From: Escherichia coli
GTDB lineage: Bacteria > Pseudomonadota > Gammaproteobacteria > Enterobacterales > Enterobacteriaceae
Assembly (NCBI RefSeq): GCF_050920415.1
Contig: NZ_CP169309.1
DNA length: 64,000 nt
Reading direction: 5' to 3' (one strand)
Shown: positions 19,285 through 49,513 of the stretch, in pieces
Layout: every line of letters starts with the position of its first letter
How positions within the stretch are numbered: position 1 is the stretch's first letter
The notes under the pieces: generated by a model
What the model was told of the DNA's origin: nothing
Seen by the model: the letters and a program-made list of their open reading frames with translations, nothing else
Databases searched by the model: none
Position numbers and translations under genes: made by a program

Positions 19285-19289
19285 ATCAA

Positions 19290-21779: not shown

Positions 21780-21788
21780 GTTCAGTCC

Positions 21789-23990
21789 TTATCGTGAGAA
21801 TCTTCCCGGCCGTTGTGGCGGTACCTTATCCTGCTGGGGAGGATCAAAGGCTTCCTGTACATTTTTCCGTGGTGGCTCCGCCCCTTCAGTTCCAGGTCCG
21901 CCATTGTCATAATCTGCCAGCGCTTTCAAAACCGCCGGTCGTAGTGTCGGCACCGGCGTTCCCGGACTACCGCCGCTATTGAGATTGATTTTCGGCCCGA
22001 CGATGTCCACGCCCCCTGAATGGATGACCACAAACGAACCACCCACCTTCAGGGTGATTTTACCGCCACTCTCCAGTACGATTTCATCCCGGACCTTCAT
22101 TCCCAGCGCACCGGTAATCTTCCTCGCCAGGTCGCCCTTCACCTCCAGACTGTGCGTTCCCTCCACCAGACTGATATGGTTCCCCGTCGTCTTATGCTCC
22201 TGCTTCCCTTCCACCGTCACTTTACGGTCGTTTCTGACATACAGGCCGTCATCGTGACTCACGCTCACCGTCCGGTCATTCGTCACCTTCAGCGTCTGGT
22301 CATTACGTACCGTTATGCGCCGGTCGTTCGCCACCGTGATACTCTGGTCGTGGCCCCCTTCTTTTCTGGTGCCGACCTCAACCGTCTGCCCCTTCACCAC
22401 CCTTATCTTCTGGTCGTTACCGATGGTCTCCGTATGGTCATGCTTCACGTCCGTCGTCCGGTCGTTAAGCACCTCCGTGTCCATGTTCTTCTGCGCGTGG
22501 ATATACACCTGCTCACTGTCCGTCGCATCCTCGAAACGCAGTTCATTAAAGCCGCTTCCTTTATAGGTCTTCGAGCGGATGGTCATCTGCGTCCGCGTGC
22601 CCGGTAAATCCCCCGGTGAACGGTTATCTTCATGGTAGGTCCGCCCCGTCACAATGGGCTGGTCCGGGTCGCCGTTCAGAAAGTCCACTATCACTTCCTG
22701 ACCCACACGCGGTATCGCCAGATTGCCGAACCCCGGTCCCGCCCATGCCTGCGACACCCGTATCCAGCATGAACTCTCCTCCGTCATCCCGTGATAACGG
22801 TCCCAGTGAAACTTCACCCGTACCCGGCCATGCTCGTCGCAGAATATCTCCTCGCCCTTCGGCCCGGTCACGATGGCACTCTGCGGGCCGTCCACCTTCG
22901 GCTTCGGCAGGGGCTGTGAGCGCCAGGTCCGGTCTGCCGGGATGACCGTGATATGGTTACTCAGTGTCGTTCCCCTCCCCTGGCTCCCGTGCAGCGCCTG
23001 CGGCTGGCTCCCCGTCAGCGTGCTGCTCACCACCTGCCACTCACGGTTCGGGTTCGCTCCCTGTACCGGATGCCCCGTCAGGGTGAACCGCCGTCCCGGC
23101 CACAGCGCCGGGGAGTTACTGATACCTGTGGCGGTTTCAGCACTGTTACGCAGCCCTTCCAGCCGGTAGCGGGTAAAGTCCTGACCATGCTGCTCGTCCT
23201 TGTAGCGCCCCGGCCAGTCCAGGATTTTGTACTGCTTCAGTTGCTCGTTGAGGTTTTCAGCATCCTCAATGTAAATACCCGGCCAGTCCGGCACCTTAAA
23301 CGTGTGGTCTTTTGAACGCACCTGCGAGGGCCGCACCTGCGCCTGGTAGCGGAACAGGCTGATGCACGCCGTCGTCACCTCACGGGTGTTCGGGTTAAAC
23401 GGTATCTCCCCGTACACCGGCAGGCCCGCCACATCATCGCACAGCGTGAGCGTCTGCTCCGGGCTGTCGTCAGCGTATCTGTCATAAAAGAAGATGCCTT
23501 CCTCCGCCCACAGCCGGGTCAGAAACGCCAGGTCGCTTTCACCGTACTGGACGCAGAACTCCCGTGCCGGGTGGCTCTCATAAAAGCGCGGCGTCCACTG
23601 CGTCACTCCGTCCTCGTTTAACAGCGTGGCGGAGATGGCCTGAATGTCCTGCTGCTGGAAGATTCGGTAGTTCTGCCGCAGCCCGCTGCGCCACAGGGGC
23701 GGGCGTATCTGAAGGTGGTACTGCATCTGCCAGCCGTTGTGCTCCTTCATGCCTAACCCCGACACCACACCGCTCACATAACGCAGCGCCGTGCCACCCT
23801 GCCAGATGGTCAGCACGGCCCCCTTCTCCAGCAGCTTCTCCGCCGTCTGGCGGAACGAGTCGCTGGCAACGTCCACATCCAGGACGAACGGCGATGAGTA
23901 TGCCTGCGTGAGGCGGAAATCCACCACCGCGAACGTCTCCGGCACCAGTCCGTCCACCGTCAGCGTAAAACGCAGCCCTTTTAATGACAT
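21789..23990 (-). CDS. vgrG: Type VI secretion spike protein VgrG (733 aa)
   Basis: MSLKGLRFTLTVDGL... N-terminus, gp27/gp5-like core with beta-helix repeats (VRNDQTLKVTNDRTVSVSHDD...), GGAGG-type RBS. Confidence 0.9.
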   Translation of the reverse strand: MSLKGLRFTLTVDGLVPETFAVVDFRLTQAYSSPFVLDVDVASDSFRQTAEKLLEKGAVLTIWQGGTALRYVSGVVSGLGMKEHNGWQMQYHLQIRPPLWRSGLRQNYRIFQQQDIQAISATLLNEDGVTQWTPRFYESHPAREFCVQYGESDLAFLTRLWAEEGIFFYDRYADDSPEQTLTLCDDVAGLPVYGEIPFNPNTREVTTACISLFRYQAQVRPSQVRSKDHTFKVPDWPGIYIEDAENLNEQLKQYKILDWPGRYKDEQHGQDFTRYRLEGLRNSAETATGISNSPALWPGRRFTLTGHPVQGANPNREWQVVSSTLTGSQPQALHGSQGRGTTLSNHITVIPADRTWRSQPLPKPKVDGPQSAIVTGPKGEEIFCDEHGRVRVKFHWDRYHGMTEESSCWIRVSQAWAGPGFGNLAIPRVGQEVIVDFLNGDPDQPIVTGRTYHEDNRSPGDLPGTRTQMTIRSKTYKGSGFNELRFEDATDSEQVYIHAQKNMDTEVLNDRTTDVKHDHTETIGNDQKIRVVKGQTVEVGTRKEGGHDQSITVANDRRITVRNDQTLKVTNDRTVSVSHDDGLYVRNDRKVTVEGKQEHKTTGNHISLVEGTHSLEVKGDLARKITGALGMKVRDEIVLESGGKITLKVGGSFVVIHSGGVDIVGPKINLNSGGSPGTPVPTLRPAVLKALADYDNGGPGTEGAEPPRKNVQEAFDPPQQDKVPPQRPGRFSR

Positions 23991-24145
23991 GATGACCTCC
24001 CTGGTATTGCTACAGGAAAAAGTAATTAACCGATATTGACCGTACCTTCTGATATTCTCTCACTGATTCATTATCTGTATTTCCCATGAACATTCTCATT
24101 TCAACAGGAAAACCAACGAATTGTAGCCATGACAATAAGTTAACA

Positions 24146-25060
24146 TTAATAATTCCTCAACGAATAAGGAGGAGATGCCCTGTCCCCATCAATAGTAACC
24201 ACGACCTGATTTGATCTTATTTTGAATATATTATCATTACCGCCATGATAGCCAAATCGTGCTAAAAAATCCTGAAATAGACCAGGTCCTCTATAAGGTC
24301 CACAGATTCTCCAAACCCGCCACTCCTCTATGCCATACGTTATTTTATCTATAGGATTAGTACACTCTCTTTCTGCCCGCCAGTTCATAATAGAAAGAAA
24401 ATACTCATATATATATTGTTCTGCAAACCACTCTTGATTAACTATTGTAAATTCTACCGTCCCTATATTATAACGATGAATGCCCGGTAAAAAGGCATAA
24501 TAATCGTTCAATGTGACATCAAAGGATAGCTCTTTCCCTGGTAATATCTCGCGCCAAACAGATTTACTTTTCCATTCACCAAAGCTACATTTTGTTTTTT
24601 TTAAAAAATCCAACTGAATGTTATCCATTATCGGTATAAACACACCACTACACAAGGAAGAGTAAGGCCCGCCGTTAACGTCAAGAGGAAGAGTTAGTCG
24701 ATGAACAAAATAAGATCCCTGGCTTTTATTCGATAAAACCACTGCAGCTGCTACAATATTTTCTTTCTGATGCACGGAAAGATGAAGATATATTTTATTT
24801 TTATCCTGATTATACTGACTCTCATTTTTACTGATAGTATAATATTGAAAAACAGCATAGGCTGAAAGATCATCATAATAATCATAATAATTAAGCCTTG
24901 TCGGTTCTACACGAGGATAGACACCAAGTTTTTCCATTACTCCATTCCAATGTAACTTCCCATATCTGTAATGAACCGCATAATCGCCAGAGATATCATA
25001 AGCAAATATTGGATGCACCCAAGAAAAAAAAGCAATAAAAACAATCCATCTAGCAAGCAT
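24146..25060 (-). CDS. Secreted protein with Sec signal peptide, putative immunity protein for the HExxH effector
   Basis: Start placed at the ATG at 25058-25060 (strong GGGGGAG RBS), giving MLARWIVFIAFFSWVHPIFA as signal peptide; 25 bp after the effector stop. Confidence 0.5.
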   Translation of the reverse strand: MLARWIVFIAFFSWVHPIFAYDISGDYAVHYRYGKLHWNGVMEKLGVYPRVEPTRLNYYDYYDDLSAYAVFQYYTISKNESQYNQDKNKIYLHLSVHQKENIVAAAVVLSNKSQGSYFVHRLTLPLDVNGGPYSSLCSGVFIPIMDNIQLDFLKKTKCSFGEWKSKSVWREILPGKELSFDVTLNDYYAFLPGIHRYNIGTVEFTIVNQEWFAEQYIYEYFLSIMNWRAERECTNPIDKITYGIEEWRVWRICGPYRGPGLFQDFLARFGYHGGNDNIFKIRSNQVVVTIDGDRASPPYSLRNY

Positions 25061-25084
25061 ATACTCCCCCGTCAAATAAAAGCA

Positions 25085-25930
25085 TCAATATGGTACAGGA
25101 ATCTCGAAATAACGTTCGATATTATATGCATTCTGAAACAGTTCTGATTTTTTATCATTTTTTAATTTAGTGGCATGAGCAATATATTCGTCACCTGTAC
25201 TATACTCTATATCTACCGGCATATCTTCCGTCCACATGCCTCCAAACTTAAGTGAATCCCCGTACCTTATAAAGTGAGATAGTTCATGGCAGAGTGTCGA
25301 TGCCTTAGAGTTTTCCCCAGTGAATGGCCTATCTATAAATCTTTGTCCTATAGTTATACTTACCAAACTTTTAAAGCTTCCAGATTTTACACCCAAAATC
25401 TGATCGTAAGTTACATTGGCAGCATAAGCGTCATTATCTGTACAATTCACAAAGTTACCAATTTTGGGCCTGATTACGTCTTTGTCAACATATTCATTAC
25501 CCCCTTTGTCATTAAGAACAAGATTACAATTGGCATCACGTTTGAGGAAATGGTCATGAACGGTAACGTCTACACAATCACCTTCCACAGATAATTCCCC
25601 ACATATCTCATACAGGCGAGTAACGCCATTTCTCATATAATCCCTTGCCTTTATATTCTCTGTAAACAGAGTATTACGCCCCCCGAAAGGGAACTTTAAT
25701 TTAATATAAGTATTTCCATCAATGCCAAATATATTTATAAATTCCTGATTTTGTTCCGCCCCCCATTTATCACCAAGATCTTCTACTCTTTTTTTCAATA
25801 CAGCCATCTGCGCCTTCAGAGCCTCTCTCATCATTATTTTAAAATCATTAGTAATTTTCCCCTCCTTTAAAACTACACACTGTTCACCACTCTGGCTTTT
25901 TCCGCTCGTACTACCCTTTTCATCTCCCAT
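25085..25930 (-). CDS. VgrG-linked putative zinc-metallopeptidase-like effector (281 aa, HExxH)
   Basis: CHELSHF (HExxH) at residues 215-219, with a possible downstream Asp ligand in STGDEY; hydrophilic N-terminus with no signal peptide; AAGGAGGA RBS; 81 bp after the vgrG stop. Confidence 0.5.
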   Translation of the reverse strand: MGDEKGSTSGKSQSGEQCVVLKEGKITNDFKIMMREALKAQMAVLKKRVEDLGDKWGAEQNQEFINIFGIDGNTYIKLKFPFGGRNTLFTENIKARDYMRNGVTRLYEICGELSVEGDCVDVTVHDHFLKRDANCNLVLNDKGGNEYVDKDVIRPKIGNFVNCTDNDAYAANVTYDQILGVKSGSFKSLVSITIGQRFIDRPFTGENSKASTLCHELSHFIRYGDSLKFGGMWTEDMPVDIEYSTGDEYIAHATKLKNDKKSELFQNAYNIERYFEIPVPY

Positions 25931-26011
25931 ATAAATCCTCCTTGGTATATATTTTCACTACAAACCCTGTTCCATTTATGCAAAAACACGCCAATTACAG
26001 GCGGTCACTCT

Positions 26012-28324
26012 CTATTCATTAATCCCTCCCCATATCATATCGATATTCAAATGCAACAATCTGACGTCTATTGTCTGCTCGCTGTCAGTGGTGAATATTT
26101 CCGTATACCCATCCTTATCCGTTTCTCCGCGGGTCTGCGTGCCGTCCTCAAAGAAGGCAATGTAGCGTGTCTCTGAATACGGTATCCCGTCATCGTCTGT
26201 AAAATGGAACTGGAGAGTATATTTTTCAGGGTTCTCATCATCATTCTCATCCTCCAGCGCCTCCAGTACAACCGGTTGCAGCGTCGATACTGGCGTCCCC
26301 GGACCTCCCCCACCATTCAGGTTTATCTTCGGCCCCACTATATCCACGCCGCCAGAGTGTATCACCACGAACGAACCGCCCGCTTTCAGGCTTATCTGGC
26401 TGCTGCTCTCCAGCACGATATCCCCGTCCACCTTTATCCCCAGCGCGCCACTCACCTTCTCCGCCAGGTCACCCTTCACCTCCAGGCTGTGTTTCCCCTC
26501 CACCAGGCTGATATGGTTTCCCGTCGTCTTATGCTCCTGCTTCCCTTCCACCGTCACTTTACGGTCGTTTCTGACATACAGGCCGTCATCGTGACTCACG
26601 CTCACCGTCCGGTCATTCGTCACCTTCAGCGTCTGGTCATTACGTACCGTTATGCGCCGGTCGTTCGCCACCGTGATACTCTGGTCGTGACCCCCTTCTT
26701 TTCTGGTGCCGACCTCAACCGTCTGCCCCTTCACCACCCTTATCTTCTGGTCGTTACCGATGGTCTCCGTATGGTCATGCTTCACGTCCGTCGTCCGGTC
26801 GTTAAGCACCTCCGTGTCCATGTTCTTCTGCGCGTGGATATACACCTGCTCACTGTCCGTCGCATCCTCGAAACGCAGTTCATTAAAGCCGCTTCCTTTA
26901 TAGGTCTTCGAGCGGATGGTCATCTGCGTCCGCGTGCCCGGTAAATCCCCCGGTGAACGGTTATCTTCATGGTAGGTCCGCCCCGTCACAATGGGCTGGT
27001 CCGGGTCGCCGTTCAGAAAGTCCACTATCACTTCCTGACCCACACGCGGTATCGCCAGATTGCCGAACCCCGGTCCCGCCCATGCCTGCGACACCCGTAT
27101 CCAGCATGAACTCTCCTCCGTCATCCCGTGATAACGGTCCCAGTGAAACTTCACCCGTACCCGGCCATGCTCGTCGCAGAATATCTCCTCACCCTTCGGC
27201 CCGGTCACGATGGCACTCTGCGGGCCGTCCACCTTCGGCTTCGGCAGCGGCGCGTGACGCCACGTCCTGTCTGCCGGTATCACCTCAAACTGATTGCTCA
27301 GTGTCGTCCCTTCACCGTGACTCCCGTGCAGCGCCTGCGGCTGTTCTCCCCGCAGTGTGCTTCCCACAACCTGCCATTCCCGGTTCAGCGTCGCTGACGG
27401 ATGGCCCGTCAGCCGGAACCGCGTTCCCGGCCACAGCCGCGCCGTGTTACACACCCCGCTCGCCGTCTCCGCCCCGTTCCGCCACCCTTCCGTCTGGTAA
27501 CGCGCAAAATCCTGGCCATGCTGCTCATCCTTGAAACGCCCCGGATAATCAAATATCTCGTACTGCGTTCCCTGTCCGTTCAGGCTCTCCCCGTCATGGC
27601 TGTAGTACCCCGGCCACCCCGGCGTTTTGAACGTATAATCCTGCGTCTCCACCGACGCCACGCTTATCTGCGCACGGTAACGGAAGTCGCGGATGTACTC
27701 TGTCGTGCCTCCGGTCGTGGTATTCGGGTTAAACGCCAGCGCCCCCATTCCCGTCAGCCCCGCCACGTCATCACACACCGCCAGCTTCTGTTCCGGCCCG
27801 TCCTGACTGCAGCGTTCATAAAAGAAGATACCTTCCTCCGCCCACAGCCGGGTCAGGAATGTCAGGTCGCTCTCCCCGTACTGCACGCAGAACTCCCGCG
27901 CCGGGTGCGCCTCATAGAACAGCGGCATCCACGCCGTCACCCCGTTCTCTTCAAGAAGCTGCGCTGATATCGTCTGAATGTCCTGCTGCTGGAAGATACG
28001 GAAGTTCTGCCGTAACCCTGCCCGCCACAGCGGCGGGCTGATGCTCAGGGAATAACGCATCTGCCAGTCGTTGTTCTCACCGAGCTGCACCTCTGTCACG
28101 ATACCGCTGACGTAACGCTGTGCAGTGTCGCCCTGCCAGACCGTCAGCACCGCGCTTTTCTCCAGAAAATCTTCTGCCGTCAGGTCAGACAGTCCGCTGG
28201 CGATATCCACATCCAGGATGAACGGTGTGCAGTGGTGCTGGTACAGACGGAAGCTCACCACCGCCGTCGCCATCTCCACAATACCGTCCACCGACAGCGT
28301 GAAACGTAATCCTTCTGCTGCCAT
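26012..28324 (-). CDS. vgrG: Type VI secretion spike protein VgrG with a divergent acidic C-terminal extension (about 770 aa)
   Basis: Start set at MAAEGLRFTLSVDG (ATG at 28322-28324); core nearly identical to the vgrG at 21789-23990; C-terminal 100 aa (...EDENDDENPEKYTLQFHFTDDDGIPYSE...) is unique. Confidence 0.9.
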   Translation of the reverse strand: MAAEGLRFTLSVDGIVEMATAVVSFRLYQHHCTPFILDVDIASGLSDLTAEDFLEKSAVLTVWQGDTAQRYVSGIVTEVQLGENNDWQMRYSLSISPPLWRAGLRQNFRIFQQQDIQTISAQLLEENGVTAWMPLFYEAHPAREFCVQYGESDLTFLTRLWAEEGIFFYERCSQDGPEQKLAVCDDVAGLTGMGALAFNPNTTTGGTTEYIRDFRYRAQISVASVETQDYTFKTPGWPGYYSHDGESLNGQGTQYEIFDYPGRFKDEQHGQDFARYQTEGWRNGAETASGVCNTARLWPGTRFRLTGHPSATLNREWQVVGSTLRGEQPQALHGSHGEGTTLSNQFEVIPADRTWRHAPLPKPKVDGPQSAIVTGPKGEEIFCDEHGRVRVKFHWDRYHGMTEESSCWIRVSQAWAGPGFGNLAIPRVGQEVIVDFLNGDPDQPIVTGRTYHEDNRSPGDLPGTRTQMTIRSKTYKGSGFNELRFEDATDSEQVYIHAQKNMDTEVLNDRTTDVKHDHTETIGNDQKIRVVKGQTVEVGTRKEGGHDQSITVANDRRITVRNDQTLKVTNDRTVSVSHDDGLYVRNDRKVTVEGKQEHKTTGNHISLVEGKHSLEVKGDLAEKVSGALGIKVDGDIVLESSSQISLKAGGSFVVIHSGGVDIVGPKINLNGGGGPGTPVSTLQPVVLEALEDENDDENPEKYTLQFHFTDDDGIPYSETRYIAFFEDGTQTRGETDKDGYTEIFTTDSEQTIDVRLLHLNIDMIWGGINE

Positions 28325-34019: not shown

Positions 34020-35558
34020 ATGACCAATAATCCCCCTTCAGCACAGATTAAGCCCGGCGAGTATGGTTTCCCCCTCAAGTTAAAAGCCCGCTACGACAAC
34101 TTTATTGGCGGCGAATGGGTAGCCCCTGCCGACGGCGAGTATTACCAGAACCTGACGCCGGTGACCGGGCAGCTACTGTGCGAAGTGGCGTCTTCGGGCA
34201 AACGAGACATCGATCTGGCGCTGGATGCTGCGCATAAAGTGAAAGATAAATGGGCGCATACTTCGGTGCAGGATCGCGCGGCGATTCTGTTTAAGATTGC
34301 CGATCGAATGGAGCAGAACCTCGAACTTTTAGCGACGGCTGAAACCTGGGATAACGGCAAACCCATTCGCGAAACCAGTGCTGCTGATGTACCGCTGGCG
34401 ATTGACCACTTCCGCTATTTCGCCTCGTGTATTCGGGCGCAGGAAGGCGGTATTAGCGAAGTGGATAGCGAAACCGTGGCTTATCACTTCCACGAACCGT
34501 TAGGCGTGGTGGGGCAGATTATCCCGTGGAACTTCCCGCTGTTGATGGCGAGCTGGAAAATGGCTCCCGCGCTGGCGGCGGGCAACTGTGTGGTGCTGAA
34601 ACCCGCACGTCTTACCCCGCTTTCTGTACTGCTGCTAATGGAAATCGTTGGTGATTTACTGCCGCCGGGCGTGGTGAACGTGGTTAACGGCGCTGGTGGG
34701 GAAATTGGCGAATATCTGGCGACCTCGAAACGCATCGCCAAAGTGGCGTTTACCGGCTCAACGGAAGTGGGCCAACAAATTATGCAGTACGCCACGCAAA
34801 ATATTATTCCGGTAACCCTGGAACTGGGCGGCAAGTCGCCAAATATCTTCTTTGCTGATGTGATGGATGAAGAAGATGCCTTTTTCGATAAAGCGCTGGA
34901 AGGCTTTGCACTGTTTGCTTTTAACCAGGGCGAAGTTTGCACCTGTCCAAGTCGTGCCTTAGTGCAGGAGTCAATCTACGAACGCTTTATGGAGCGCGCC
35001 ATCCGCCGTGTCGAAAGCATTCGCAGCGGTAACCCGCTCGATAGCGTGACGCAAATGGGGGCGCAGGTTTCTCACGGGCAACTGGAAACCATCCTCAATT
35101 ACATTGATATCGGTAAAAAAGAGGGTGCTGACGTGCTCACCGGTGGGCGGCGCAAGCTGCTGGAAGGCGAACTGAAAGACGGCTACTACCTCGAACCGAC
35201 GATTCTGTTTGGTCAGAATAATATGCGCGTGTTCCAGGAAGAAATTTTTGGTCCGGTGCTGGCGGTAACCACCTTCAAAACGATGGATGAGGCGCTGGAG
35301 CTGGCGAACGACACGCAATATGGCCTGGGGGCTGGTGTCTGGAGCCGCAACGGTAATCTGGCCTATAAGATGGGGCGCGGTATTCAGGCAGGGCGCGTGT
35401 GGACCAACTGTTATCACGCTTACCCGGCACATGCGGCGTTTGGCGGCTACAAACAATCAGGTATCGGCCGTGAAACCCACAAGATGATGCTGGAGCATTA
35501 CCAGCAAACCAAGTGCCTGCTGGTGAGCTACTCAGATAAACCGTTGGGGCTGTTCTGA
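34020..35558 (+). CDS. aldB: Aldehyde dehydrogenase B (512 aa)
   Basis: Start at ATG 34020 ([17 protein letters not shown]..., AAGGAG RBS); ALDH signature ELGGKSP and catalytic Cys in [10 protein letters not shown]. The longer upstream ORF from 33846 is not used. Confidence 0.9.
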
Positions 35559-35835
35559 TGTAAGAAGCTGGTCGCATCGGGTATTCATTGCCTGATGCGA
35601 CGCTTTCGCGTTTTACCAATTCAAATGTCTACGTCTTGAATGACTGAATATTGATTGAACTTAATTACGAGTCTCCTCGCATCTTTTCAACAAGTTACTG
35701 CACACCGTTATTCTTCTTCCGAACGGCATTCCTGAGTCAACTTTATCTCCCTGACGGCCCATATAAATCGCGCTATCGTGATTGTTATTGCTAAGTGTGT
35801 GTGTATCGTGTGTATAATCATGGAAGGGCAGGGAT

Positions 35836-36021
35836 GTGAAAAGTGCAGACGTGATCGCCATCCTGAAGCAGCATGGCTGGGAACATATTCGAACCCGTGG
35901 TAGTCATCATCAGTTCCGCCACCCTGTCCATCCGGGTCTGGTGACGGTTCCGCACCCTAAAAAAGATATTAAGCCCGGTACGCTGGCGCAAATTGGGCGT
36001 CAGGCTGGTTTAACATTTTAA
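35836..36021 (+). CDS. hicA: HicA-family toxin (YcfA-like mRNA interferase), 61 aa, GTG start
   Basis: MKSADVIAILKQHGWEHIRTRGSHHQFRHPVHPGLVTVPHPKKDIKPGTLAQIGRQAGL matches the HicA pattern (GSHhqf...vtvPhH.kdlk.gtl..I..qaGl). Confidence 0.7.
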   Translation: MKSADVIAILKQHGWEHIRTRGSHHQFRHPVHPGLVTVPHPKKDIKPGTLAQIGRQAGLTF

Positions 36022-36037
36022 AATTTCAGGAGGCAAT

Positions 36038-36448
36038 ATGTTTTATCCCGCCTATATCCACAGTGATCCTGACGGCAGCGCCAGCGGTTTTTTCCCTGAT
36101 GTTCCAGGCTGTTATTTTGCTGGTGATACGCTGGACAACGCTTTCCAGGATGCGCGAAGTGCACTGGTCGCGCACTTCGAAACCTTATGCGAGATGAATG
36201 AAGAGTTGCCGCTTCCAGGCTCTGTGGAAACACATCTGGTCCAGCGTGCGCAGGACTTTATTGGCGGGCAATGGTTGCTGGTGGATATCAATATGAATCA
36301 GTTCGAAGGTCGGGCTGAACGTATCAATATTACGATGCCGAAAAGATTACTGAACAAGATTGATACCTACGTGCGCAATAACCCAGACTACGCCAACAGA
36401 AGTGCGTTTCTGGCGGAAGCTGCCCGGCGTGTATTGCCGGGCGTTTAA
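36038..36448 (+). CDS. hicB: HicB-family antitoxin with C-terminal ribbon-helix-helix domain (136 aa)
   Basis: Starts 17 bp after hicA; N-terminal HicB fold; C-terminal INITMPKRLLNKIDTYVRNNPDYANRSAFLAEAARRVL has RHH character. Confidence 0.65.
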   Translation: MFYPAYIHSDPDGSASGFFPDVPGCYFAGDTLDNAFQDARSALVAHFETLCEMNEELPLPGSVETHLVQRAQDFIGGQWLLVDINMNQFEGRAERINITMPKRLLNKIDTYVRNNPDYANRSAFLAEAARRVLPGV

Positions 36449-36780
36449 TCTCGCGTTTCGATGGTGAGCGGGCGGACCAGGCTGTACAGCCACAGACCAA
36501 AACAAGCGATGGTGCCAATCACCACGGTGAGGAACACACTGACTGACAGGCCTGCAAGCAATCCCGCAGGCAGGGCCAGCAGGCCGTGGATCACGGTGTC
36601 GTTCCATCTCACCTGATCGTAGCCAAACATGCCTAAAACGCCGCAAACCAGACCGTAAATCACCATTGGTGTTCCGAGGCCAATCAGCAATAAACGGTAG
36701 ATAATTGAAGGTTTAATACGCTTTATCTGTACTGTGGATGTTTTACTGGGGTTATTCATTAGTTTGGTCAATAGTTCCAT
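36445..36780 (-). CDS. Small inner-membrane protein, about 110 aa, 2-3 predicted TM helices
   Basis: Hydrophobic segments IIYRLLLIGLGTPMVIYGLVCGVLGMF and LLALPAGLLAGLSVSVFLTVVIGTIACFGLWLY; convergent with hicB, stop codons overlap; start codon uncertain. Confidence 0.4.
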   Translation of the reverse strand: MELLTKLMNNPSKTSTVQIKRIKPSIIYRLLLIGLGTPMVIYGLVCGVLGMFGYDQVRWNDTVIHGLLALPAGLLAGLSVSVFLTVVIGTIACFGLWLYSLVRPLTIETRD

Positions 36781-36941
36781 TATTTCAATATGATAAACCT
36801 CGACCTGTTGAAAAGCCAGGTAGCACACTTCAGAAAGTATATAAAAAACAATATGTCGTTATATAAATAAGGAAATTGCACTGCATCATGGCATTTCATA
36901 ATATGCGTTAATTGTTCTTTTTTATATTCTCTGAGGGAAAT

Positions 36942-37265
36942 ATGTTCCTGGACTATTTTGCACTGGGAGTGCTTATTTTTGTATTTCTGGTGATATTCTA
37001 TGGGATTATTATTTTACATGATATTCCCTACCTGATTGCTAAAAAACGTAATCATCCTCATGCCGACGCCATTCATGTTGCTGGTTGGGTGAGTCTTTTT
37101 ACGCTGCATGTTATCTGGCCATTTTTGTGGATTTGGGCCACGCTTTACCACCCGGAGCGGGGATGGGGAATGCAAAACCATGACTCCTCCGTTGTGCAAC
37201 TACAACAGCGTATTGCCGGGCTGGAGAAACAGCTCGCCGACATCAAATCCTCTTCTGCCGAGTAA
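36942..37265 (+). CDS. yiaW: Small inner-membrane protein YiaW (107 aa)
   Basis: Start at [15 protein letters not shown]... (GAGGGA RBS); paralogue of YibI; directly upstream of yiaV. Confidence 0.8.
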
Positions 37266-37270
37266 TACTT

Positions 37271-38407
37271 ATGGATTTACTGATTATTTTGACCTATGTG
37301 GCTTTCGCATGGGCAATGTTTAAGATCTTCAAAATTCCTGTAAATAAATGGACCATTCCCACCGCGGCCCTGGGTGGCATATTTATTGTCAGCGGTCTAA
37401 TTCTGTTAATGAACTATAACCATCCGTATACCTTTAAAGCGCAAAAAGCGGTTATTTCTATTCCTGTTGTCCCGCAGGTGACAGGCGTGGTGATCGAAGT
37501 GACGGACAAGAAAAATACGCTGATTAAAAAAGGTGAGGTGCTATTTCGACTGGACCCGACGCGTTATCAGGCGCGGGTGGATCGGCTGATGGCGGATATC
37601 GTTACCGCAGAACATAAACAGCGGGCGTTGGGCGCAGAGTTAGATGAGATGGCGGCGAATACTCAGCAGGCAAAGGCCACGCGGGATAAATTCGCTAAAG
37701 AGTACCAGCGTTACGCACGCGGCAGCCAGGCGAAAGTAAACCCGTTTTCAGAACGCGATATTGATGTGGCGCGGCAAAATTATCTGGCGCAGGAAGCCTC
37801 CGTAAAGTCATCGGCGGCGGAACAAAAACAGATCCAGAGCCAGCTGGATAGCCTGGTGTTGGGTGAACATTCTCAAATCGCCAGCCTGAAAGCGCAGCTC
37901 GCGGAAGCAAAATATAACCTTGAGCAGACGATAGTGCGTGCGCCGAGCGATGGTTATGTGACCCAAGTGCTGATTCGTCCGGGTACCTATGCCGCATCGC
38001 TGCCGCTACGTCCTGTGATGGTGTTTATACCCGATCAGAAACGACAAATTGTGGCGCAGTTCCGTCAGAACTCCTTGCTGCGACTGGCTCCCGGCGATGA
38101 TGCGGAAGTGGTGTTTAATGCTCTGCCAGGTAAGGTATTCAGCGGTAAGCTGGCATCCATTAGTCCAGCTGTTCCCGGCGGAGCTTATCAGTCGACCGGC
38201 ACCTTACAGACGTTAAACACAGCACCGGGTTCAGATGGCGTTATCGCGACCATTGAACTGGATGAGCACACTGAGTTGAGCGCTTTACCAGACGGTATTT
38301 ACGCCCAGGTGGCGGTTTACTCTGATCATTTCAGCCATGTCTCGGTGATGCGCAAAGTGCTGTTACGCATGACCAGTTGGGTGCATTACCTTTATCTCGA
38401 TCATTAA
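37271..38407 (+). CDS. yiaV: HlyD-family membrane fusion protein YiaV (378 aa)
   Basis: N-terminal TM helix, coiled-coil region and beta-barrel; intact paralogue of the IS-disrupted yibH. Confidence 0.85.
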
Positions 38408-39378
38408 TCTTCGCTTTCCGCCGCTTGTTCAGGCCGCAGTTGCTGCGACTGAGCAAGCTGGTGGCGAATTTCACGCAGCATTTCATCCAGCACATACTGG
38501 ACCCGCCAGGGCTGGTATTCCCGTTTACGGAAGATAGCCACCAGATCCAGCCACCATTCATACGGTTGCTGAAAGCAGGGCACCAGCGTGCCGTCTTGCA
38601 GGTCGCTCTGCACACTTTTGTCTGGCGCAAACACAATCCCCAGGTGATTTCGTGCCAGCTCCAGCGCCGATTGCGTGTTGTCGCAAACGTAATTTCCCTT
38701 CACGCGATAATCCCGCACCTCTTTACTCCCGGCGACGTTGAAGCGCCAGATATTCGCGTCGTCGATCATCATCGAGTCGATCAAAATACAGGAGTGATGT
38801 TCGAGTTCGTCAGGACGGCTAATGGGATGTTTCTCAAGATAGCGCTGACTGGCATAAGCGGTTACGGCATATTGCGTAATAAAACTGGCAACCAGCGATT
38901 CATCTTTTGGTGGAGCATAGCTGATTAAAACATCACAATCATCGGGAAATTCGACACCTTCATAAAAGGCATTACGCTCAAGATTGCAGGTTTTTAGCGA
39001 TAAGGTGATATCACCGATATCTTTAATTTTATCGATAACATGTTTGGATAAATAGGTAATTATGCCGGTTGGGGCGTAGATGGTGACCCGACCACGTTTC
39101 TCATGCTTATAATCTGCAATAAAATTATTAAGTTGCTCGTTTCTGTCCAGCATGTCGTTGATGTACGGTAACAGCGCGGTACCAAAAGGTGTGAGCATCA
39201 GCTGCCGGGTGGTTCGGTCAAAGACTTTTAAACCTACTTTTGATTCAAAATCAGCAAGATATTTGCTGACGTTGGCCTGTGCGAATCCAAGTACAGTCGC
39301 GGCATGGCTGATATTTTCACTGGCAGCGATTACCGAGATAATTTTTAACTCCCGGTACTTAAGTTGTAATTTTGTCAT
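38404..39378 (-). CDS. yiaU: LysR-family transcriptional regulator YiaU (324 aa)
   Basis: N-terminal LysR HTH ([41 protein letters not shown]); divergent from yiaT. Confidence 0.85.
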
Positions 39379-39501
39379 CGCAACAGCCCAATTATATATA
39401 ATTTTATATATTACTATATAAATATGAATCTTGCACCGGAGAAATTGTAAGCATTATTATGCCGACTCTTTTTTATCTTATTTTAAAATGGAATACCGGA
39501 C

Positions 39502-40242
39502 ATGTTAATTAACCGCAATATTGTGGCGTTATTTACGTTGCCTTTTATGGCAAGCGCTACTGCTTCTGAATTATCCATTGGTGCTGGTGCAGCTTATAAT
39601 GAATCGCCTTATCGTGGTTATAATGAAAATACAAAGGCAATTCCGCTGATTAGTTATGAAGGTGATTCTTTTTATGTTCGTCAGACCACGTTAGGTTTTA
39701 TTCTGTCGCAAAGTGAAAAAAATGAACTTAGCCTGACCGCATCCTGGATGCCGCTGGAATTTGACCCTGCAGATAATGACGATCATGCCATGCAACAGCT
39801 TGATAAGCGTGATAGTACGGCTATGGCGGGGGTTGCCTGGTATCACCACGAGCGTTGGGGAACCGTGAAAGCCTCTGCGGCTGCGGACGTTCTGGATAAC
39901 AGCAACGGCTGGGTGGGGGAGCTATCGGTATTTCACAAAATGCAGATAGGTCGCCTGTCGCTGACACCTGCACTGGGCGTTCTCTATTATGACGAGAATT
40001 TCAGTGACTATTACTATGGCATTTCAGAGAGTGAGTCCCGTCGTAGCGGTCTGGCAAGTTATTCCGCGCAGGATGCCTGGGTGCCCTATGTCAGCCTGAC
40101 GGCAAAATACCCGATAGGAGAGCACATCGTATTGATGGCGAGTGCCGGATACAGCGAGCTGCCGGAAGAGATTACCGACAGCCCGATGATTGATCGTAAT
40201 GAGAGTTTTACCTTTGTCACCGGCGTGAGCTGGCGTTTTTAA
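39502..40242 (+). CDS. yiaT: Outer-membrane protein YiaT (MipA/OmpV family, 246 aa)
   Basis: Signal peptide then beta-strand-rich sequence ending in an aromatic C-terminus (...VSWRF). Confidence 0.85.
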   Translation: MLINRNIVALFTLPFMASATASELSIGAGAAYNESPYRGYNENTKAIPLISYEGDSFYVRQTTLGFILSQSEKNELSLTASWMPLEFDPADNDDHAMQQLDKRDSTAMAGVAWYHHERWGTVKASAAADVLDNSNGWVGELSVFHKMQIGRLSLTPALGVLYYDENFSDYYYGISESESRRSGLASYSAQDAWVPYVSLTAKYPIGEHIVLMASAGYSELPEEITDSPMIDRNESFTFVTGVSWRF

Positions 40243-40289
40243 TTTACCGGTGGATGTCGGTGCGGCTGGCCTACGCTCTCGCACTGACC

Positions 40290-40370
40290 TTCAGGCTTGA
40301 TAAGACGCGTTAAGCGTCGCATCAGGCAATGTGCACCCTACGTTGGATGCGGCGCGAGCGCCTTATCCAA
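40290..40370. repeat. REP/BIME elements
   Basis: gcttgataagacgcgttaagcgtcgcatcaggc and ggatgcggcgcgagcgccttatcc palindromes. Confidence 0.6.
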
Positions 40371-40371
40371 C

Positions 40372-42342
40372 CTACGGATGGCAATGCTTTTCCTCATTCA
40401 CCCAGATCCGCATTTCGCCTTCACCCCGGTTAGCCCAGCTAAACCACGGGATAAATGTCAGAGTTTGCGGCTGGCGTTTGGCTGGCGCGCTGTCGTAATG
40501 CCACAGCGGTTGCTGCTCTGGATTGCTCTGTTCATACCGGTAACCCGGTGCCTGGATTAAGATCTTATGGCGGAACAATCCATTACCTTCAAATGTCGTA
40601 AATGGCGCATCGGCGGGCAGCCACAGGTTATGCAGTGACTCGCCGTTGTCGGCCTGTTCCAGGCAATACACCAGCGGGCCGCGCTGAATCGCCACTTTTC
40701 CGGCGACGTGACGCACCAGCGGGTTACCGTAAACGCGACGTACCGGCATTGGCAAAGTCAGATTCAGCGTGTCGCCCTCCTGCCATTCGCGGGTAATGTG
40801 CAAATACCCTTTACGAATATCCTGCTCGACCTCTTCCCCATTCAATGTAATCTGCGGCTGTGTGCACCAGTCCGGCAGACGTAAAGCCAGCGTATGACGC
40901 ACCGGCTGGGGCGATTCAACCGCAATTGTCACCTGTTCCTGCCACGGATAGTTTCCGCTAACCCGCAGACGCAGCGTGCCATTTTCTACCGGCACTTCCA
41001 TGCTGTTTCCTGCGTAGATGTTGATATACAACGCATCTTCACGCGGCGTGTAGAGATAATGACCAATCGAGGTTAGCACGCGGGCGATATTTGGCGGACA
41101 ACAAGCGCAACCAAACCAACGCTGGCGGATCGGCTTAACGTGATCGTAGATATGGTTGAATTTCAGCGATTTTGGATGTACTTCCAGCGGATTCACATAG
41201 AAGAAATGTTTGCCATCCAGCGCCATGCCGCCGAGCACGGTGTTGTACAGTGCGCGCTCCATCACATCGGCATATTGACTGTCGCCTTCCATTTCCAGCA
41301 TTCGCCGGGCGAACATCATCAGGCCGATGGAAGCACAGCTTTCGGCGTATACCGTGTCATTCGGCAGATCGTAATCGCTGCTGAACGCTTCGCCGCTGCT
41401 TTGTGAGCCAATGCCGCCGGTAATATATAACTGACGCTGGGCCATATTGTTCCACAGCCGCAGGCAGTCCTGACGCTTGCTTTCATCGTGACTTAAACGC
41501 GCGAGATGCGCGACGCCGGTCATCAGGTAGACAAAACGTACCGCGTGACCAATGGCAGTTTGCTGCTGTGCGATGGGCAAATGTGCCTGGCTGTAGGCTT
41601 TGTCTTTCACCATCCACGCCGGGCCGTAGGTGTGCCAGTGCGAGGTCTGCCCGCGCTTTTCATATTCCTGGTCGTAATAGTGCGGTTGCGCACCACGCTG
41701 TTCGACAAAATAGTTCGTCAGCGCCAGGTAGCGCGGCTCTTCGGTCACTTCATATAGGCGCATTAGTGCCAGTTCAATTTCCGGGTGACCAGGATAACCG
41801 TGTAACTTACTTTCACCTGGACCAAATACGCTGTCGATATGATCGGCCAGACGGCAAACCACTTCCAGCAAGCGCCGCTTGCCCGTGGCCTGGAAGAAGG
41901 CGACTCCGGCTTCAATCAGATGACCGGCGCAGTAAAGTTCATGACACTCCGCCAGATTGCTCCAGCGTTCTTCGGGCGTTTTTACCGTAAAGTAAGTATT
42001 GAGATAGCCATCTTCGCACTGGGCGGAAGCGACCAGTTCGATTACCTCGTCAGCAGTTTTTTCCAGTTCGGCATCCGGCTTCTGGCACAGCGACCAGGCT
42101 ACCGCTTCCAGCCATTTGGCGACGTCGCTGTCCTGAAACACCATCCCGTAAAATTCACCGTCTTGCAGTCCTGCGGCAATGCGAAAGTTTTCAATCGCAT
42201 GGCTGGGTTCCGCTTCTGGGATACGATCGTTCAAGGCATCCCACTGATAAGGAATCACCACGTCGCGGACCAGTTGTTGGTACTGACCGAGGAACGGATC
42301 GCTGACCGTCAGTTTATGCAGATCGACTTCCGAAATGTTCAT
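40372..42342 (-). CDS. Glycoside hydrolase, GH127-like (DUF1680 family, beta-L-arabinofuranosidase-type), about 656 aa
   Basis: Start at MNISEVDLHKL (AAGGAG RBS); Cys-rich motif WFGCACCPPN typical of GH127 as I recall it; 10 bp downstream of the transporter gene. Confidence 0.65.
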   Translation of the reverse strand: MNISEVDLHKLTVSDPFLGQYQQLVRDVVIPYQWDALNDRIPEAEPSHAIENFRIAAGLQDGEFYGMVFQDSDVAKWLEAVAWSLCQKPDAELEKTADEVIELVASAQCEDGYLNTYFTVKTPEERWSNLAECHELYCAGHLIEAGVAFFQATGKRRLLEVVCRLADHIDSVFGPGESKLHGYPGHPEIELALMRLYEVTEEPRYLALTNYFVEQRGAQPHYYDQEYEKRGQTSHWHTYGPAWMVKDKAYSQAHLPIAQQQTAIGHAVRFVYLMTGVAHLARLSHDESKRQDCLRLWNNMAQRQLYITGGIGSQSSGEAFSSDYDLPNDTVYAESCASIGLMMFARRMLEMEGDSQYADVMERALYNTVLGGMALDGKHFFYVNPLEVHPKSLKFNHIYDHVKPIRQRWFGCACCPPNIARVLTSIGHYLYTPREDALYINIYAGNSMEVPVENGTLRLRVSGNYPWQEQVTIAVESPQPVRHTLALRLPDWCTQPQITLNGEEVEQDIRKGYLHITREWQEGDTLNLTLPMPVRRVYGNPLVRHVAGKVAIQRGPLVYCLEQADNGESLHNLWLPADAPFTTFEGNGLFRHKILIQAPGYRYEQSNPEQQPLWHYDSAPAKRQPQTLTFIPWFSWANRGEGEMRIWVNEEKHCHP

Positions 42343-42352
42343 CTTGTGCTCC

Positions 42353-43753
42353 TTAAGGCTGTACATGACGCTGACGCAGGTCGCTAGCAATGCGTGACAT
42401 CATAGGGTTATTGAGTTTGCAAAAGCGGATCGCCATCGCCAGCAGCAGGTGGAACAGCGCAGGCAGCAATGTTTCCATCGCTGCGATCCCGCCAAGCGAA
42501 CTGGCGGTCTGGTTTTCCACGCCTGGCTGGTAGGCGACAAAAATAAACAGCAGGCTGATGATCCCGGCGCTGGAGGCCCAGGCCAGCTTGATGAAAAACA
42601 GATTGAAGGCGAAGTTCATGCCGGAAGAACGTACGCGGGTTTTCCACTCGCCGTAGTCATCGGCAAAGGCCATCAATGAGAAGTGCAATGGCAATGTGAA
42701 GCCAAGAATCACGCCATTACCAAGGATCACCGCCAGCCACAGCGTTTGATAAGCCGGGCCAGAAGGCAGGAACCACATCAACACCGCCAGCGCGGCGAGG
42801 AGCAGGTTGGTGTAGTAGTAAATTTTGACGGTATCGAAACGTCGCGTTAACGGGCTGACAATCACCGAGCCGATAATGGAGGCGAAGGTGACCATAGTGA
42901 AGAACAGCGACGTGTAGCCCGTACTGCCTTGTAAGACGTAGGTAATGAAGTACATATACCCACCGCCGCGAATATTAAAGACGTTAATCAGCAGGAAAGA
43001 CATGACCAGCATCAGCAGCAGTTGGTCGTTGTTTCGCAGCCCGGCAAGATGTTCGCGCAGGGTAAATTTCCCCATTGTGGAGAGTGGCACCCGTTCACGA
43101 ACCCAGAAGAAACAGCACAGGAACATCACCACAGCGATGGCGCACAGCACGCCGACGCCCAGTTGATAGCCGCGCGCGGCATTACCCTGACCGAAGAGAT
43201 CCACCATCCACGGCAGGCCAACCGAAACCAGAAATCCCGCTACGCCGCAGAGAACGAATCGCCAGGACTGGCAGGAGATCACTTCATTGTGGCGGGTGGT
43301 CATGGTGTTGATCAGCGCGCAGTACGGCACGTTGATGGCGGTATAACCGACTGAAAGGAGCAGGTAAGTGCCGAACGCCCAGGCGATTTTTACTCCCATG
43401 CTGGCATCTGGCACGGTGAACGTCAGGATGCCGATAATGCCGATGGGAATGGCAATCCACAACTGCCACGGACGAAAGCGCCCCCAGCGACTTTGCGTCC
43501 GGTCGGCAATGACGCCCATCACCGGGTCGGAGATGGCATCAAACACGCGCAGTGCAATAAACAGCGTGCCGACCAGCGCCGGAGTTAAGCCAAAAACGTC
43601 GGTGTAGAAAAAGGTGAGAAAGTTCATGATCAGGCAAGTTATGACGGTGCCGCCAGCGTCACCCAGGCCGTAGCCTATTTTTTCCCGTACAGATAACGCG
43701 TCGTCAATTTTACCTTTAGCGATATCAGCGGTGGTAATCGGTGTAGAGGTCAT
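42353..43753 (-). CDS. GPH-family (MelB-like) glycoside/cation symporter, about 466 aa
   Basis: 12-TM profile; N-terminal [35 protein letters not shown] and the D/R-rich loop-helix motifs typical of the GPH family. Confidence 0.7.
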
Positions 43754-43978
43754 AGATATTCCTCGCAAATAGAGAGCATTTTTTTGTTTTATTGCAATGA
43801 CCTGATTAATTTCGCCGTTATCTGGAATATCAACAAGGCGAGAAAAGAGTAAAAAAAGGTGACGATTCCGACCTGAATTTAAAAGTGTGAATTGGATCAG
43901 GTGAAATTAATGTTTTTGATTAATAATCAAAAGGTAATGTGTTTAATCATTAATGAATAAGCGGGAAATTACATATCA

Positions 43979-44794
43979 ATGCTCGAATTATCCATGACGT
44001 TACCGATTAAAGTGCAAAATGGTGGATTATTTATTTCCCGTGGCGTAGGGAGGCATCCGGCAAGGCGGCTGGAGTCATGGGAAATTATCTTTGTCGAAAA
44101 AGGTCGATTAGCGATTCAGGAAGAAGAGCGGATATTTCTGGTCGATGCGGGAGAGAGTTTATTACTCTGGCCGAACCGACAGCATGTTGGGGTAGAGGAT
44201 TTTCCCGCCGATCTCAAATTTTACTGGCTGCATTTTGAGGTTAAAGCGCCGGATAGCGACCCGCGCTGGCTCACTCATCTTAGTGTGCCGCAACAAACGA
44301 AGGTTGCCGATCCGCAGGCGCTGGTGGCCCTGTTTCGCCAGTTCTTAAGCGAACAGGAAAAGCATCAACGCACTCCGGCGCTGGAGTTTATTGTGCTGCT
44401 GATTTTGCAGCAACTCACCCGTGACGCGCGTCTTGATGAACAGGCCGATGCCGCAGGTACCACGCTTGCCTGGAAAGCGCAGAAACTGATCCGCACGCAA
44501 TATCATCGCCCGCTTTCCACTGCGCTTTTAGCCCGCGAGCTGTACTGCAATGCCGATTATCTTGGGCGCGTCTATCGGCGGGTGTTTCATCTGACGTTAA
44601 CAGAAGCAATCCACCGCCAGCGGGTGCGCGAAGCCGAAAAGCTGTTAATTAGCGAAGCGCGATCGCTCACGGAAGTGGCGGCGTTGTGCGGGTTTAATGA
44701 CGTTGGCTATTTCCGGCAGATTTTTCGCAAACACACCGGTTTAACGCCAGCTGCGTGGAAGCGACGTTACAGCAAGGAACATATCAATTCGTAG
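43979..44794 (+). CDS. AraC/XylS-family transcriptional regulator (271 aa)
   Basis: C-terminal double-HTH AraC signature (...TEVAALCGFNDVGYFRQIFRKHTGLTPAAWKRRY); divergent from the transporter/hydrolase operon. Confidence 0.75.
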   Translation: MLELSMTLPIKVQNGGLFISRGVGRHPARRLESWEIIFVEKGRLAIQEEERIFLVDAGESLLLWPNRQHVGVEDFPADLKFYWLHFEVKAPDSDPRWLTHLSVPQQTKVADPQALVALFRQFLSEQEKHQRTPALEFIVLLILQQLTRDARLDEQADAAGTTLAWKAQKLIRTQYHRPLSTALLARELYCNADYLGRVYRRVFHLTLTEAIHRQRVREAEKLLISEARSLTEVAALCGFNDVGYFRQIFRKHTGLTPAAWKRRYSKEHINS

Positions 44795-48526: not shown

Positions 48527-49513
48527 TTATTGCACCTCATCCACGGCTTTCAGCAGTTCATCGCCCTGCGGAACATCTTTTACAAACATGTCGCGGACCT
48601 GAGTACCCAGTACGTCGCTAAAGGCTTTGCGATCAAGTTCGGTGATGACTTCCACGCCAGCGTCTTTCATGCCGTCGATGATTTTTTGCTGATTTTCGGC
48701 GACCAATTTGCGCTGGTAATTACCCGCTTCTTGCGCAGATGAAATTAGCGCTTGCTGGAACTCCGGGCTTAAGCCATCAAACTTCGCTTTGTTGATCACC
48801 ACCAGAAGTGGGGAATAGGCATGGTGCGTCAGAGAAAGGTACTTCTGCACTTCATAAAATTTGGCTGACCAGACGACGTTGATCGGGTGTTCCTAAGCGT
48901 CGATAGTGCGCGTTTCCAGCCCGGTATAGACTTCGGCAAATGGCATCGGAATCGGGTTAGCGCCAAAGACTTTGAATGCGGCGATATTCATCGGGCTATT
49001 GTTGGTGCGTATTTTCAGCCCTTTCAGGTCGGCAGGTGTTTTAACTGGCTGGCGTGAGTTGGTGACATCGCGCCAGCCGTTTTCCCAGTAGGCCAGTACT
49101 TTCAGTCCCTTACCTTCAAGGGAGGCCTTCAGTTCATCGCCGACTTTGCCGTCGAGTGTTTTATGCGCGTGGGCGGTATCGCGGAACAGGAAAGGAACAT
49201 CAAGCAGGTTCATCACAGGTGATAATCCGGCAAAGTTATTCGAGCCAGACATCTCCATATCAATAGTGCCGCCACGCACGCCGCTGATCATCGCTTGTGC
49301 GTTGCCGAGAGTACTGTCCGGGAACAGTTTTAATTTCAGCTCGCCTTTGGTTCTCTCCTGTAATAATTCATTAAATTTTTTCGCTGCAATATGTTGTGAG
49401 TCGGTTTGTGAGGTTTCATAACCGAAACGTAATGATTGTGCCGCCAGCGAAGACGTACTGAATGCAGCGAGGCCAGCAATGAATAATGCGTAGGTTACAG
49501 AGCGTAATTTCAT
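48527..49513 (-). pseudogene. yiaO: TRAP-transporter solute-binding protein YiaO with an in-frame amber stop
   Basis: The 987-bp frame (328 codons, the length I recall for K-12 YiaO) is intact except for TAG at 48893-48895 (minus strand), giving ...TRTIDA*EHPINVVW; the codon replaces the Gln of the conserved TRAP-SBP D-x-Q-E-x-P motif. Confidence 0.75.

Follow-up and report, generated by a model that had tools for sequence, protein, structure and literature searches.

A predicted hicAB toxin–antitoxin operon with a ribbon-helix-helix type HicB between aldB and yiaW of Escherichia coli

In the window, i.e., the whole 64,000-nucleotide stretch of Escherichia coli DNA that was analysed, three ORFs are situated between the end of aldB (35558) and the annotated start of yiaW (36942). 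The first two very probably constitute an intact chromosomal type II toxin–antitoxin operon, a canonical autoregulated hicAB whose HicB antitoxin is RHH-type (ribbon-helix-helix; class 4). It is an ordinary, known kind of system, and both proteins are already named as HicA and HicB family members in RefSeq. The 7.3 kb surrounding the locus is identical in E. coli MFDS1022581 (NZ_CP169399.1), where RefSeq lists the first product, WP_000833473.1, as a HicA family toxin, the second, WP_000499744.1, as a HicB family antitoxin and the third, WP_001064341.1, as a hypothetical protein. The names of the pair come from automatic annotation, and other E. coli carry the same two proteins at this locus as well. 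A survey published in 2016 (PMC4861877) took the toxin entry WP_000833473.1 as a query for HicA of E. coli, and a functional study of this hicAB orthologue was not found in the literature searched.

Organization of the locus

The toxin gene hicA (35836–36021, plus strand) begins with GTG and encodes a HicA-family toxin of 61 aa, a predicted mRNA interferase. The antitoxin gene hicB (36038–36448, plus strand) begins with ATG, is preceded by a strong AGGAGG, and encodes a HicB antitoxin of 136 aa. Both genes lie on the same strand in a bicistronic order with hicA upstream, and the spacer between them measures 16 nt (36022–36037), not the 17 bp given in a preliminary description of this DNA. The third ORF (36445–36759, minus strand) encodes a membrane protein of 104 aa with two predicted helices, adjacent to the toxin–antitoxin module and outside it. 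Its TAA (36445–36447 on the minus strand) and the TAA of hicB (36446–36448) have two nucleotides in common within the sequence TTTAA (36444–36448). The presence of all three ORFs between aldB and yiaW at the places first described, and a convergent gene with overlapping stop codons, are thereby confirmed. The neighbours of the pair in the window are aldB, the membrane-protein gene and yiaWVUT, and defence genes are absent from these flanks. A scan of 35400–37100 against Rfam returned no RNA family.

The HicA toxin

The domain search proposed in the preliminary description returned the expected family for each protein. Residues 4–59 of HicA align with positions 2–58 of the 58-position Pfam model PF07927 (HicA_toxin, E 2.1e-23), and residues 3–129 of HicB align with positions 1–123 of the 123-position model PF15919 (HicB_lk_antitox, E 9.1e-36). 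In NCBIfam, no family was found for HicA, and HicB gave only a sub-threshold match of residues 94–130 to a nickel-responsive regulator model. In a sequence search of the PDB, HicA aligns end to end with Burkholderia pseudomallei HicA (4C26/6G26, E 1e-16), with weaker matches to 9SVK, 4P78_C and 1WHZ. From these alignments, HicA is predicted to be dsRBD-like and small (about 60 aa), in agreement with the solved HicAs.

HicA toxins are recognized by a conserved Gly in the β1–β2 turn together with one conserved His in β2; in Streptococcus pneumoniae HicA, His36 is essential for RNase activity, and this histidine is conserved across HicAs (PMC6159526). The HicA of the window carries the motif Gly22-Ser23-His24, and its His24 aligns with an Ala of the 4C26 chain. 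The GTG start and its surroundings (GGGATGTGAA) are invariant across E. coli, the Escherichia cryptic clade, Enterobacter and Pseudescherichia, and the same GTG is the start in RefSeq. The Pfam match, the full-length alignment with 4C26/6G26 and the RefSeq start all agree with the original assignment of a 61-aa HicA-type toxin with a GTG start.

Compared with two contigs of cryptic-clade Escherichia (L006 and L005), both genes of the pair are under strong purifying selection. The dN/dS of hicA is 0.07 against L006, a value (3 non-synonymous against 12 synonymous changes) that speaks for selection on the function of the protein, and the dN/dS of hicB is 0.07 against L006 and 0.06 against L005.

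The HicB antitoxin

Over its full length, the sequence of HicB matches the RHH-type 6G1N (E 3e-25) and HicB3 4P78 (E 2e-21, residues 1–132), and residues 94–133 align with the C-terminal domains of both. The AlphaFold model of HicB (pLDDT 88, 26 homologues used) contains an N-domain of three strands (residues 2–9, 15–18 and 26–29), two helices (32–52 and 63–73) and a further strand (78–83). In the C-domain of the model, an extended segment (94–100) is followed by two helices (102–114 and 121–135). The ribbon of an RHH fold forms only in the dimer.

In a Foldseek search, the HicB model was matched over 133–134 columns by 4P7D, 6G26 and 6G1N and over just 88 columns by the HTH-type 6HPB; its full-length matches were RHH-type HicBs only. 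With the N-domain structures 6G1C and 4P78_A, the rmsd is 1.8–2.5 Å. Taken together, HicB is predicted to comprise a partial RNase H-like N-domain (about residues 1–90) and a ribbon-helix-helix C-domain (about residues 94–135). An HTH C-domain of the K-12 type (class 3) was not found, as 6HPB and 6U0I match the N-domain of HicB only. A 136-aa HicB with an RHH-like C-terminus had been described at the outset, and Pfam, the alignments with 6G1N and 4P78, and the AlphaFold and Foldseek results concur with it. Since Pfam, the alignments with solved structures and the fold search all agree, the earlier interpretation of the pair as HicA and an RHH-type HicB is supported in every respect that was tested.

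Upstream region and 3' hairpin

The region immediately upstream of hicA (35750–35835, plus strand) is conserved and represents a candidate promoter and HicB operator. Within it, block A, GCGCTATCGTG (35770–35781, plus strand), has the conserved form GCGCTA(T/A)(C/T)GTG. Block B, GTGTGTATCGTGTGTATAATC (35799–35819, plus strand), contains a tandem GTGTGTAT and a perfect TATAAT (35813–35818), and across the genera it reads GTGTGTAT(C/G)(G/A)TGTGTATAATC. A Shine–Dalgarno-like GGAAGG follows (35821–35826, plus strand). Amid flanking sequence that diverges, blocks A and B, the GGAAGG and the context of the GTG are kept in E. coli, the Escherichia cryptic clade, Enterobacter and Pseudescherichia. Judged by this conservation, the two blocks may include the promoter and the operator bound by HicB. 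A consensus promoter scan upstream of hicA found no canonical sigma-70 site; the best –35 element is TTGCTA (35788–35793), 19 nt from the –10. Likewise, an inverted-repeat search of the hicA promoter found no clean palindrome.

The TATAAT sits 17 nt ahead of the GTG of hicA. If it is the –10 element, the leader would be approximately 10 nt long and would start inside the presumed Shine–Dalgarno sequence. In K-12 hicAB, the transcript from the P2 promoter gives HicB, not HicA (PMC10865869). Speculatively, the short leader recalls this P2 promoter.

At the end of hicB, a GC-rich hairpin with a 9-bp stem (36421–36443, plus strand) is followed by TTTAAT and appears terminator-like in the scan. The hairpin forms in the RNA fold, and the z-score of the 66-nt stretch is only –1.8. 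It is possibly a weak, putative terminator of the hicAB transcript.

Proposed mechanism

By analogy with the studied HicAB systems, whose regulation and neutralization have been modelled (PMC10865869), a common transcript of hicA and hicB would arise from the conserved region immediately ahead of them. HicA, with a small dsRBD fold, would act as a ribosome-independent RNase using His24, and the partial RNase H-like N-domain of HicB would bind HicA and block its active site. The HicB dimer, formed through the C-terminal RHH domain, would repress the operon at the conserved blocks overlapping the TATAAT. Depletion of HicB or an excess of HicA would then release free HicA, which would cleave mRNA and lead to growth arrest. 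The RNase activity, the neutralization, the autoregulation, the operator and the trigger are all extrapolated here from studied relatives, namely the systems of B. pseudomallei, Yersinia pestis, S. pneumoniae and K-12. Established by the present analysis are the structure of the genes, their domain and fold assignments, the catalytic motif, purifying selection and the distribution.

Distribution and possible role

Among the 5426 complete genomes of E. coli searched, 505 have the pair intact, with at least 80% of hicAB matched. In each it lies on the chromosome, and the matches listed show identities of about 99% or higher. In most carriers, hicB is joined directly to a GH127-MFS-AraC block, and the membrane-protein gene and yiaWVUT are lost. 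In some carriers (E. coli E50-type), an HSDR_N 'type I restriction endonuclease' gene is situated between aldB and hicA. With both yiaWVUT and the GH127 block present, the window shows the region at its fullest; most lineages of E. coli possess derivatives of it that have undergone deletions.

Outside E. coli, two contigs of cryptic-clade Escherichia contain hicA-hicB, the convergent membrane-protein gene and yiaW in the same order. In Pseudescherichia vulneris, the order is aldB-hicA-hicB-avtA, and in Enterobacter it is aldB-yiaU-yiaT-hicA-hicB-HSDR_N-GH127-MFS, both without the membrane-protein gene. The identity to the proteins of Pseudescherichia and Enterobacter is 74–75% for HicA, 76–77% for HicB and 94.5% for AldB. 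The occurrence of hicAB in the neighbourhood of aldB in several enteric genera indicates a long-standing resident, maintained by vertical descent or by repeated exchange. An insertion of hicAB between aldB and the membrane-protein gene within Escherichia was also considered and was withdrawn in view of the 74–77% identical pairs in the same neighbourhood of Pseudescherichia and Enterobacter. An older arrangement with all of these genes, from which lineages lost different parts, accounts for the pattern no less well. Among mobile elements, the plasmid search gave no close copy of hicAB, the apparent hits being 4.9-Mb chromosomes filed as plasmids, and the phage search gave no close copy either, with HicB relatives at most 43% identical.

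These distributions bear on the role of the operon. Abortive-infection defence against phages, in which infection would deplete HicB or activate HicA and translation would be shut down, is compatible with the mechanism proposed above, and as the actual role of this pair it is conceivable, if rather unlikely. Such a role has been proposed for HicA modules from their genomic contexts (PMC10865869), and it is in line with the patchy presence of the pair within E. coli and with the HSDR_N gene that adjoins it in Enterobacter and in E50-type strains. However, defence genes are missing from the flanks in the window, no PADLOC model matches any of the three proteins, and close copies were found neither on plasmids nor in phages. 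Moreover, mobile defence islands do not typically stay linked to a single chromosomal neighbourhood over long times, as this pair has.

A broader combination of claims is clearly unlikely to hold as a whole: that hicAB is a long-resident, largely vertically inherited pair with a host function, that it is expressed from a near-leaderless transcript favouring HicB, and that the adjacent gene belongs to a widespread uncharacterised membrane family. When read for a host function, hicAB in the aldB neighbourhood of the Enterobacteriaceae would be neither a transient selfish cassette nor a defence cassette.

The scar in K-12 and loss of the pair

All that matches in roughly 3400 other E. coli genomes, among them those of K-12, BL21, W and C, is a 49-bp segment from the hicB 3' end. 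In the alignment with K-12, the stretch 35618–36363 of the window is missing and about 90 nt stand in its place, which we take to contain a REP element. The last ~85 bp of hicB are kept in K-12 and carry a 12-bp deletion, which takes out one arm of the 3' hairpin. Furthermore, the membrane-protein gene of K-12 has an in-frame deletion of 171 bp between two ACCAG-containing repeats, and its remnant is the annotated 47-aa ORF MNNSSK...YGLVRPLTIETRD. The preliminary description knew of no genes in K-12 at the corresponding site. This is right as regards hicAB, which is absent, and wrong as regards the interval itself, where the ~85-bp hicB relic and the annotated 47-aa ORF remain. Thus, the aldB–yiaW interval of K-12 is a scar consisting of a hicB relic and a truncated membrane-protein gene instead of an empty interval, which explains the annotated 47-aa ORF.

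Such widespread loss raises the alternative that the pair is an attenuated or domesticated remnant, in which HicA is ineffective and HicB acts mainly as a transcription factor, or that it is neutral cargo nearing loss. The hicB relics of 49–85 bp in about 3400 genomes agree with this alternative, as do two variants from outside E. coli. In the cryptic-clade strain Escherichia sp. E1V33, hicA is frameshifted beside an intact hicB, and in Pseudescherichia HicA, the conserved Gly22 is replaced by Glu. Both suggest that toxin activity has not always been retained in the lineage. The frameshift of E1V33 may be a sequencing error, as it falls in an A6 run and the assembly is a draft. In the window, however, both ORFs are intact, the catalytic motif is present, and the low dN/dS of hicA speaks against decay; the remnant interpretation is therefore considered very unlikely for this pair, and an intact toxin–antitoxin operon is retained as the preferred interpretation.

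The convergent membrane-protein gene

The ATG at 36759 (104 aa) is backed by conservation as the start of the membrane-protein gene and is also the start of RefSeq WP_001064341.1. From this start, the dN/dS is 0.13 over 315 nt, and in the 69 nt upstream of 36759 there are 11 changes relative to the cryptic-clade copies, mostly non-synonymous. The longer starts, ATG at 36780 (111 aa) and GTG at 36828, were rejected on conservation; the codon at 36780 is GTG in the cryptic clade. Hence the convergent ORF first described is real, with its start most likely at 36759 and not at 36780. In the AlphaFold model (mean pLDDT 84), two helices (residues 17–44 and 59–95) are connected by a short hairpin loop, and the second helix is unusually long. 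Hydropathy also gives two helices, so that of the two to three transmembrane segments originally claimed, two is the better estimate.

A word-indexed search gave matches in Escherichia alone, while an exhaustive HMMER search extended the family to 169 clusters (E<=0.001), most of them 95–125 aa long. In the alignment of this family, Gly27, Gly59 and Gly88-Leu89 are invariant, and Gly46, Asn53 and Trp90 are near-invariant. Neither Pfam nor NCBIfam nor PADLOC assigned a family to the membrane protein; in Pfam, it and 34 family members gave nothing beyond chance-level matches. The Foldseek search of its model against the PDB gave nothing better than E = 1. Its nearest relatives come from a cluster whose named members are Citrobacter amalonaticus/farmeri (57% identity) and from Franconibacter (52% identity). 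It is, consequently, a real gene encoding a two-helix protein of an unnamed family. This family is sizeable, and K-12 carries just a gutted 47-aa version of its member.

The gene and hicAB are distributed independently. A full-length membrane-protein gene occurs in 27 E. coli genomes, at most 15 of which have the full layout of the window (hicAB and the membrane-protein gene), and strain 6409 has the full-length gene with hicAB missing. Convergent to aldB and without hicAB, the gene was also found on a 681-bp Citrobacter-type metagenome contig and on two Franconibacter contigs, and remoter family members occur in unrelated contexts. That the membrane-protein gene occurs elsewhere without hicAB, and hicAB without it, points to a separate, older neighbour of aldB and not to a part of the module. 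A single system of three components, in which the membrane protein would serve as a sensor, an effector or a third partner and would be coupled to the pair through the overlapping 3' ends, might be read from the 2-nt overlap of the stop codons, the layout kept in the two cryptic-clade contigs and the lack of an assigned function or family for the membrane protein, but it is largely refuted by these independent distributions, namely the full layout in only 15 of the 505 hicAB-bearing E. coli genomes, strain 6409, the Franconibacter and Citrobacter-type genes abutting aldB, the Pseudescherichia and Enterobacter pairs without the gene and the unrelated contexts of remoter members, so that the expected co-occurrence was not seen and this system is rejected as extremely improbable. 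The best guess is that the product is a small inner-membrane protein unlinked to HicAB and that its gene is decaying in most E. coli.

Comparison with known HicAB systems

The locus adds no new kind of toxin–antitoxin system. In about 9% of its complete genomes, E. coli has a second hicAB, a paralogue of the K-12 pair whose HicB is RHH-type. What modest value remains concerns the scar left in K-12, the synteny across genera and the family of membrane proteins that has no name.

The HicAB of K-12 (6HPB, 6HPC; class 3) belongs to the same family and has the same operon order, hicA then hicB, and the N-domain of its HicB has the same fold (88 columns). In contrast, K-12 HicB has a helix-turn-helix C-domain (PMC10865869). 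The sequence match between 6HPB and the HicB of the window is confined to residues 1–66 (E 1e-5), and K-12 HicA is absent from the PDB matches of the toxin at E<0.01. The two pairs are paralogues and not alleles, in accordance with the initial remark that this pair differs from the K-12 hicAB.

In the scheme of Gerdes 2024, class 4 comprises the hicAB systems with an RHH HicB (PMC10865869). The predicted RHH C-domain places the hicAB of the window in this class, like the systems of B. pseudomallei and Yersinia pestis. In the case of Y. pestis, HicB3 (4P78, 4P7D) is of the RHH type and is the top Foldseek match to the HicB described here (133 columns), but HicA3 is a weaker match (E 1e-4), and HicA3-HicB3 forms a separate paralogous lineage in another genus.

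The HicAB of B. pseudomallei (4C26, 6G1C, 6G1N, 6G26) has the same order and sizes of genes. About half of the HicA residues are identical in the alignment, and the Gly-Ser-His is common to both toxins. The identity between the HicBs is about 35% in the fold alignment, and both are alike in the partial RNase H N-domain and the RHH C-domain. However, host and locus differ, and the divergence between the sequences is considerable. It is only in the B. pseudomallei system that toxicity, binding to DNA and derepression dependent on HicA have been measured (summarized in PMC10865869). As an RHH-type hicAB resident in E. coli, the present pair offers an easy comparison partner for the B. pseudomallei system.

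The hicAB locus in K-12 and related genomes

In K-12 and approximately 3400 other complete E. coli genomes, the locus between aldB and yiaW is a scar, which was delineated by comparing window positions 36365-36759 with the K-12 locus (L002:2910-3212). Approximately 85 bp of the 3' end of hicB are left in the K-12 scar, with a 12-bp deletion within them, and the convergent membrane-protein gene has undergone a 171-bp in-frame deletion bounded by ACCAG-containing repeats. The annotated 47-aa ORF of K-12 (WP_001066080.1) is thus explained as the membrane-protein gene carrying this deletion in the scar.

In its full-length form, this gene (window 36445-36759, minus strand) encodes a 104-aa protein, a member of an unnamed family of two-helix membrane proteins of approximately 100 aa, which comprises 169 clusters (E<=0.001). 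Residues G27, G59, and G88-L89 are invariant in the family, and G46, N53, and W90 are near-invariant; the Pfam, NCBIfam, and PADLOC models gave no match to the protein.

At the hicA start, the GGGATGTGAA context shows no variation across the four genera or groups compared (E. coli, the Escherichia cryptic clade, Enterobacter, and Pseudescherichia). An out-of-frame ATG followed directly by TGA (ATGTGA, window 35834-35839) overlaps the GTG start codon. In Escherichia sp. E1V33 of the cryptic clade, a 1-nt deletion in hicA (L005:4816-4992), apparently situated in the A6 run (CCTAAAAAAGAT), yields a frameshifted product of 58 aa beside an intact hicB. The frameshift reflects either inactivation of the toxin or a homopolymer sequencing error, the assembly being a draft. 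The syntenic HicA of Pseudescherichia vulneris (L020:3800-3985) reads RVRESHHQF, with Glu where the Gly-Ser-His motif has its conserved Gly; judged from this substitution, the protein may be an attenuated toxin.

Insertion elements and other features of the window

An IS2-like element (window ~59700-61030) is located between malS and bax and contains two overlapping transposase ORFs (59722-60132 and 60090-60995); the otherwise collinear genome of E. coli MFDS1022581 lacks it. A copy of IS621 is situated at ~54715-55693, and the IS21-family element ISEc62 (~13297-15262) interrupts yibH. Between yibH and yibF, the region ~17100-28324 resembles a cluster of effector islands for type VI secretion, containing two orphan vgrG/tssI genes (21789-23990 and 26012-28324). 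Hypothetical proteins are encoded downstream of both genes, and ISAs1 fragments flank a gene pair encoding an N-acetylmuramidase and an EF-hand protein in this region. The gene yiaO (window 48527-49513) codes for the 2,3-diketo-L-gulonate-binding protein of a TRAP transporter. The reference genome, to which the window is identical across these positions, lists it as a pseudogene containing an internal stop.

The aldB-sgbE interval

The window contains both yiaW-yiaV-yiaU-yiaT and a block encoding a GH127 glycosidase, an MFS transporter, and an AraC regulator (together 36942-44794; the GH127 block at ~40372-44794). The other lineages examined possess either yiaWVUT or the GH127 block, not both, or have hicAB joined straight to GH127. 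Because the lineages differ in this content, the aldB-sgbE interval is a deletion-prone variable region, and its fullest form is that of the window.
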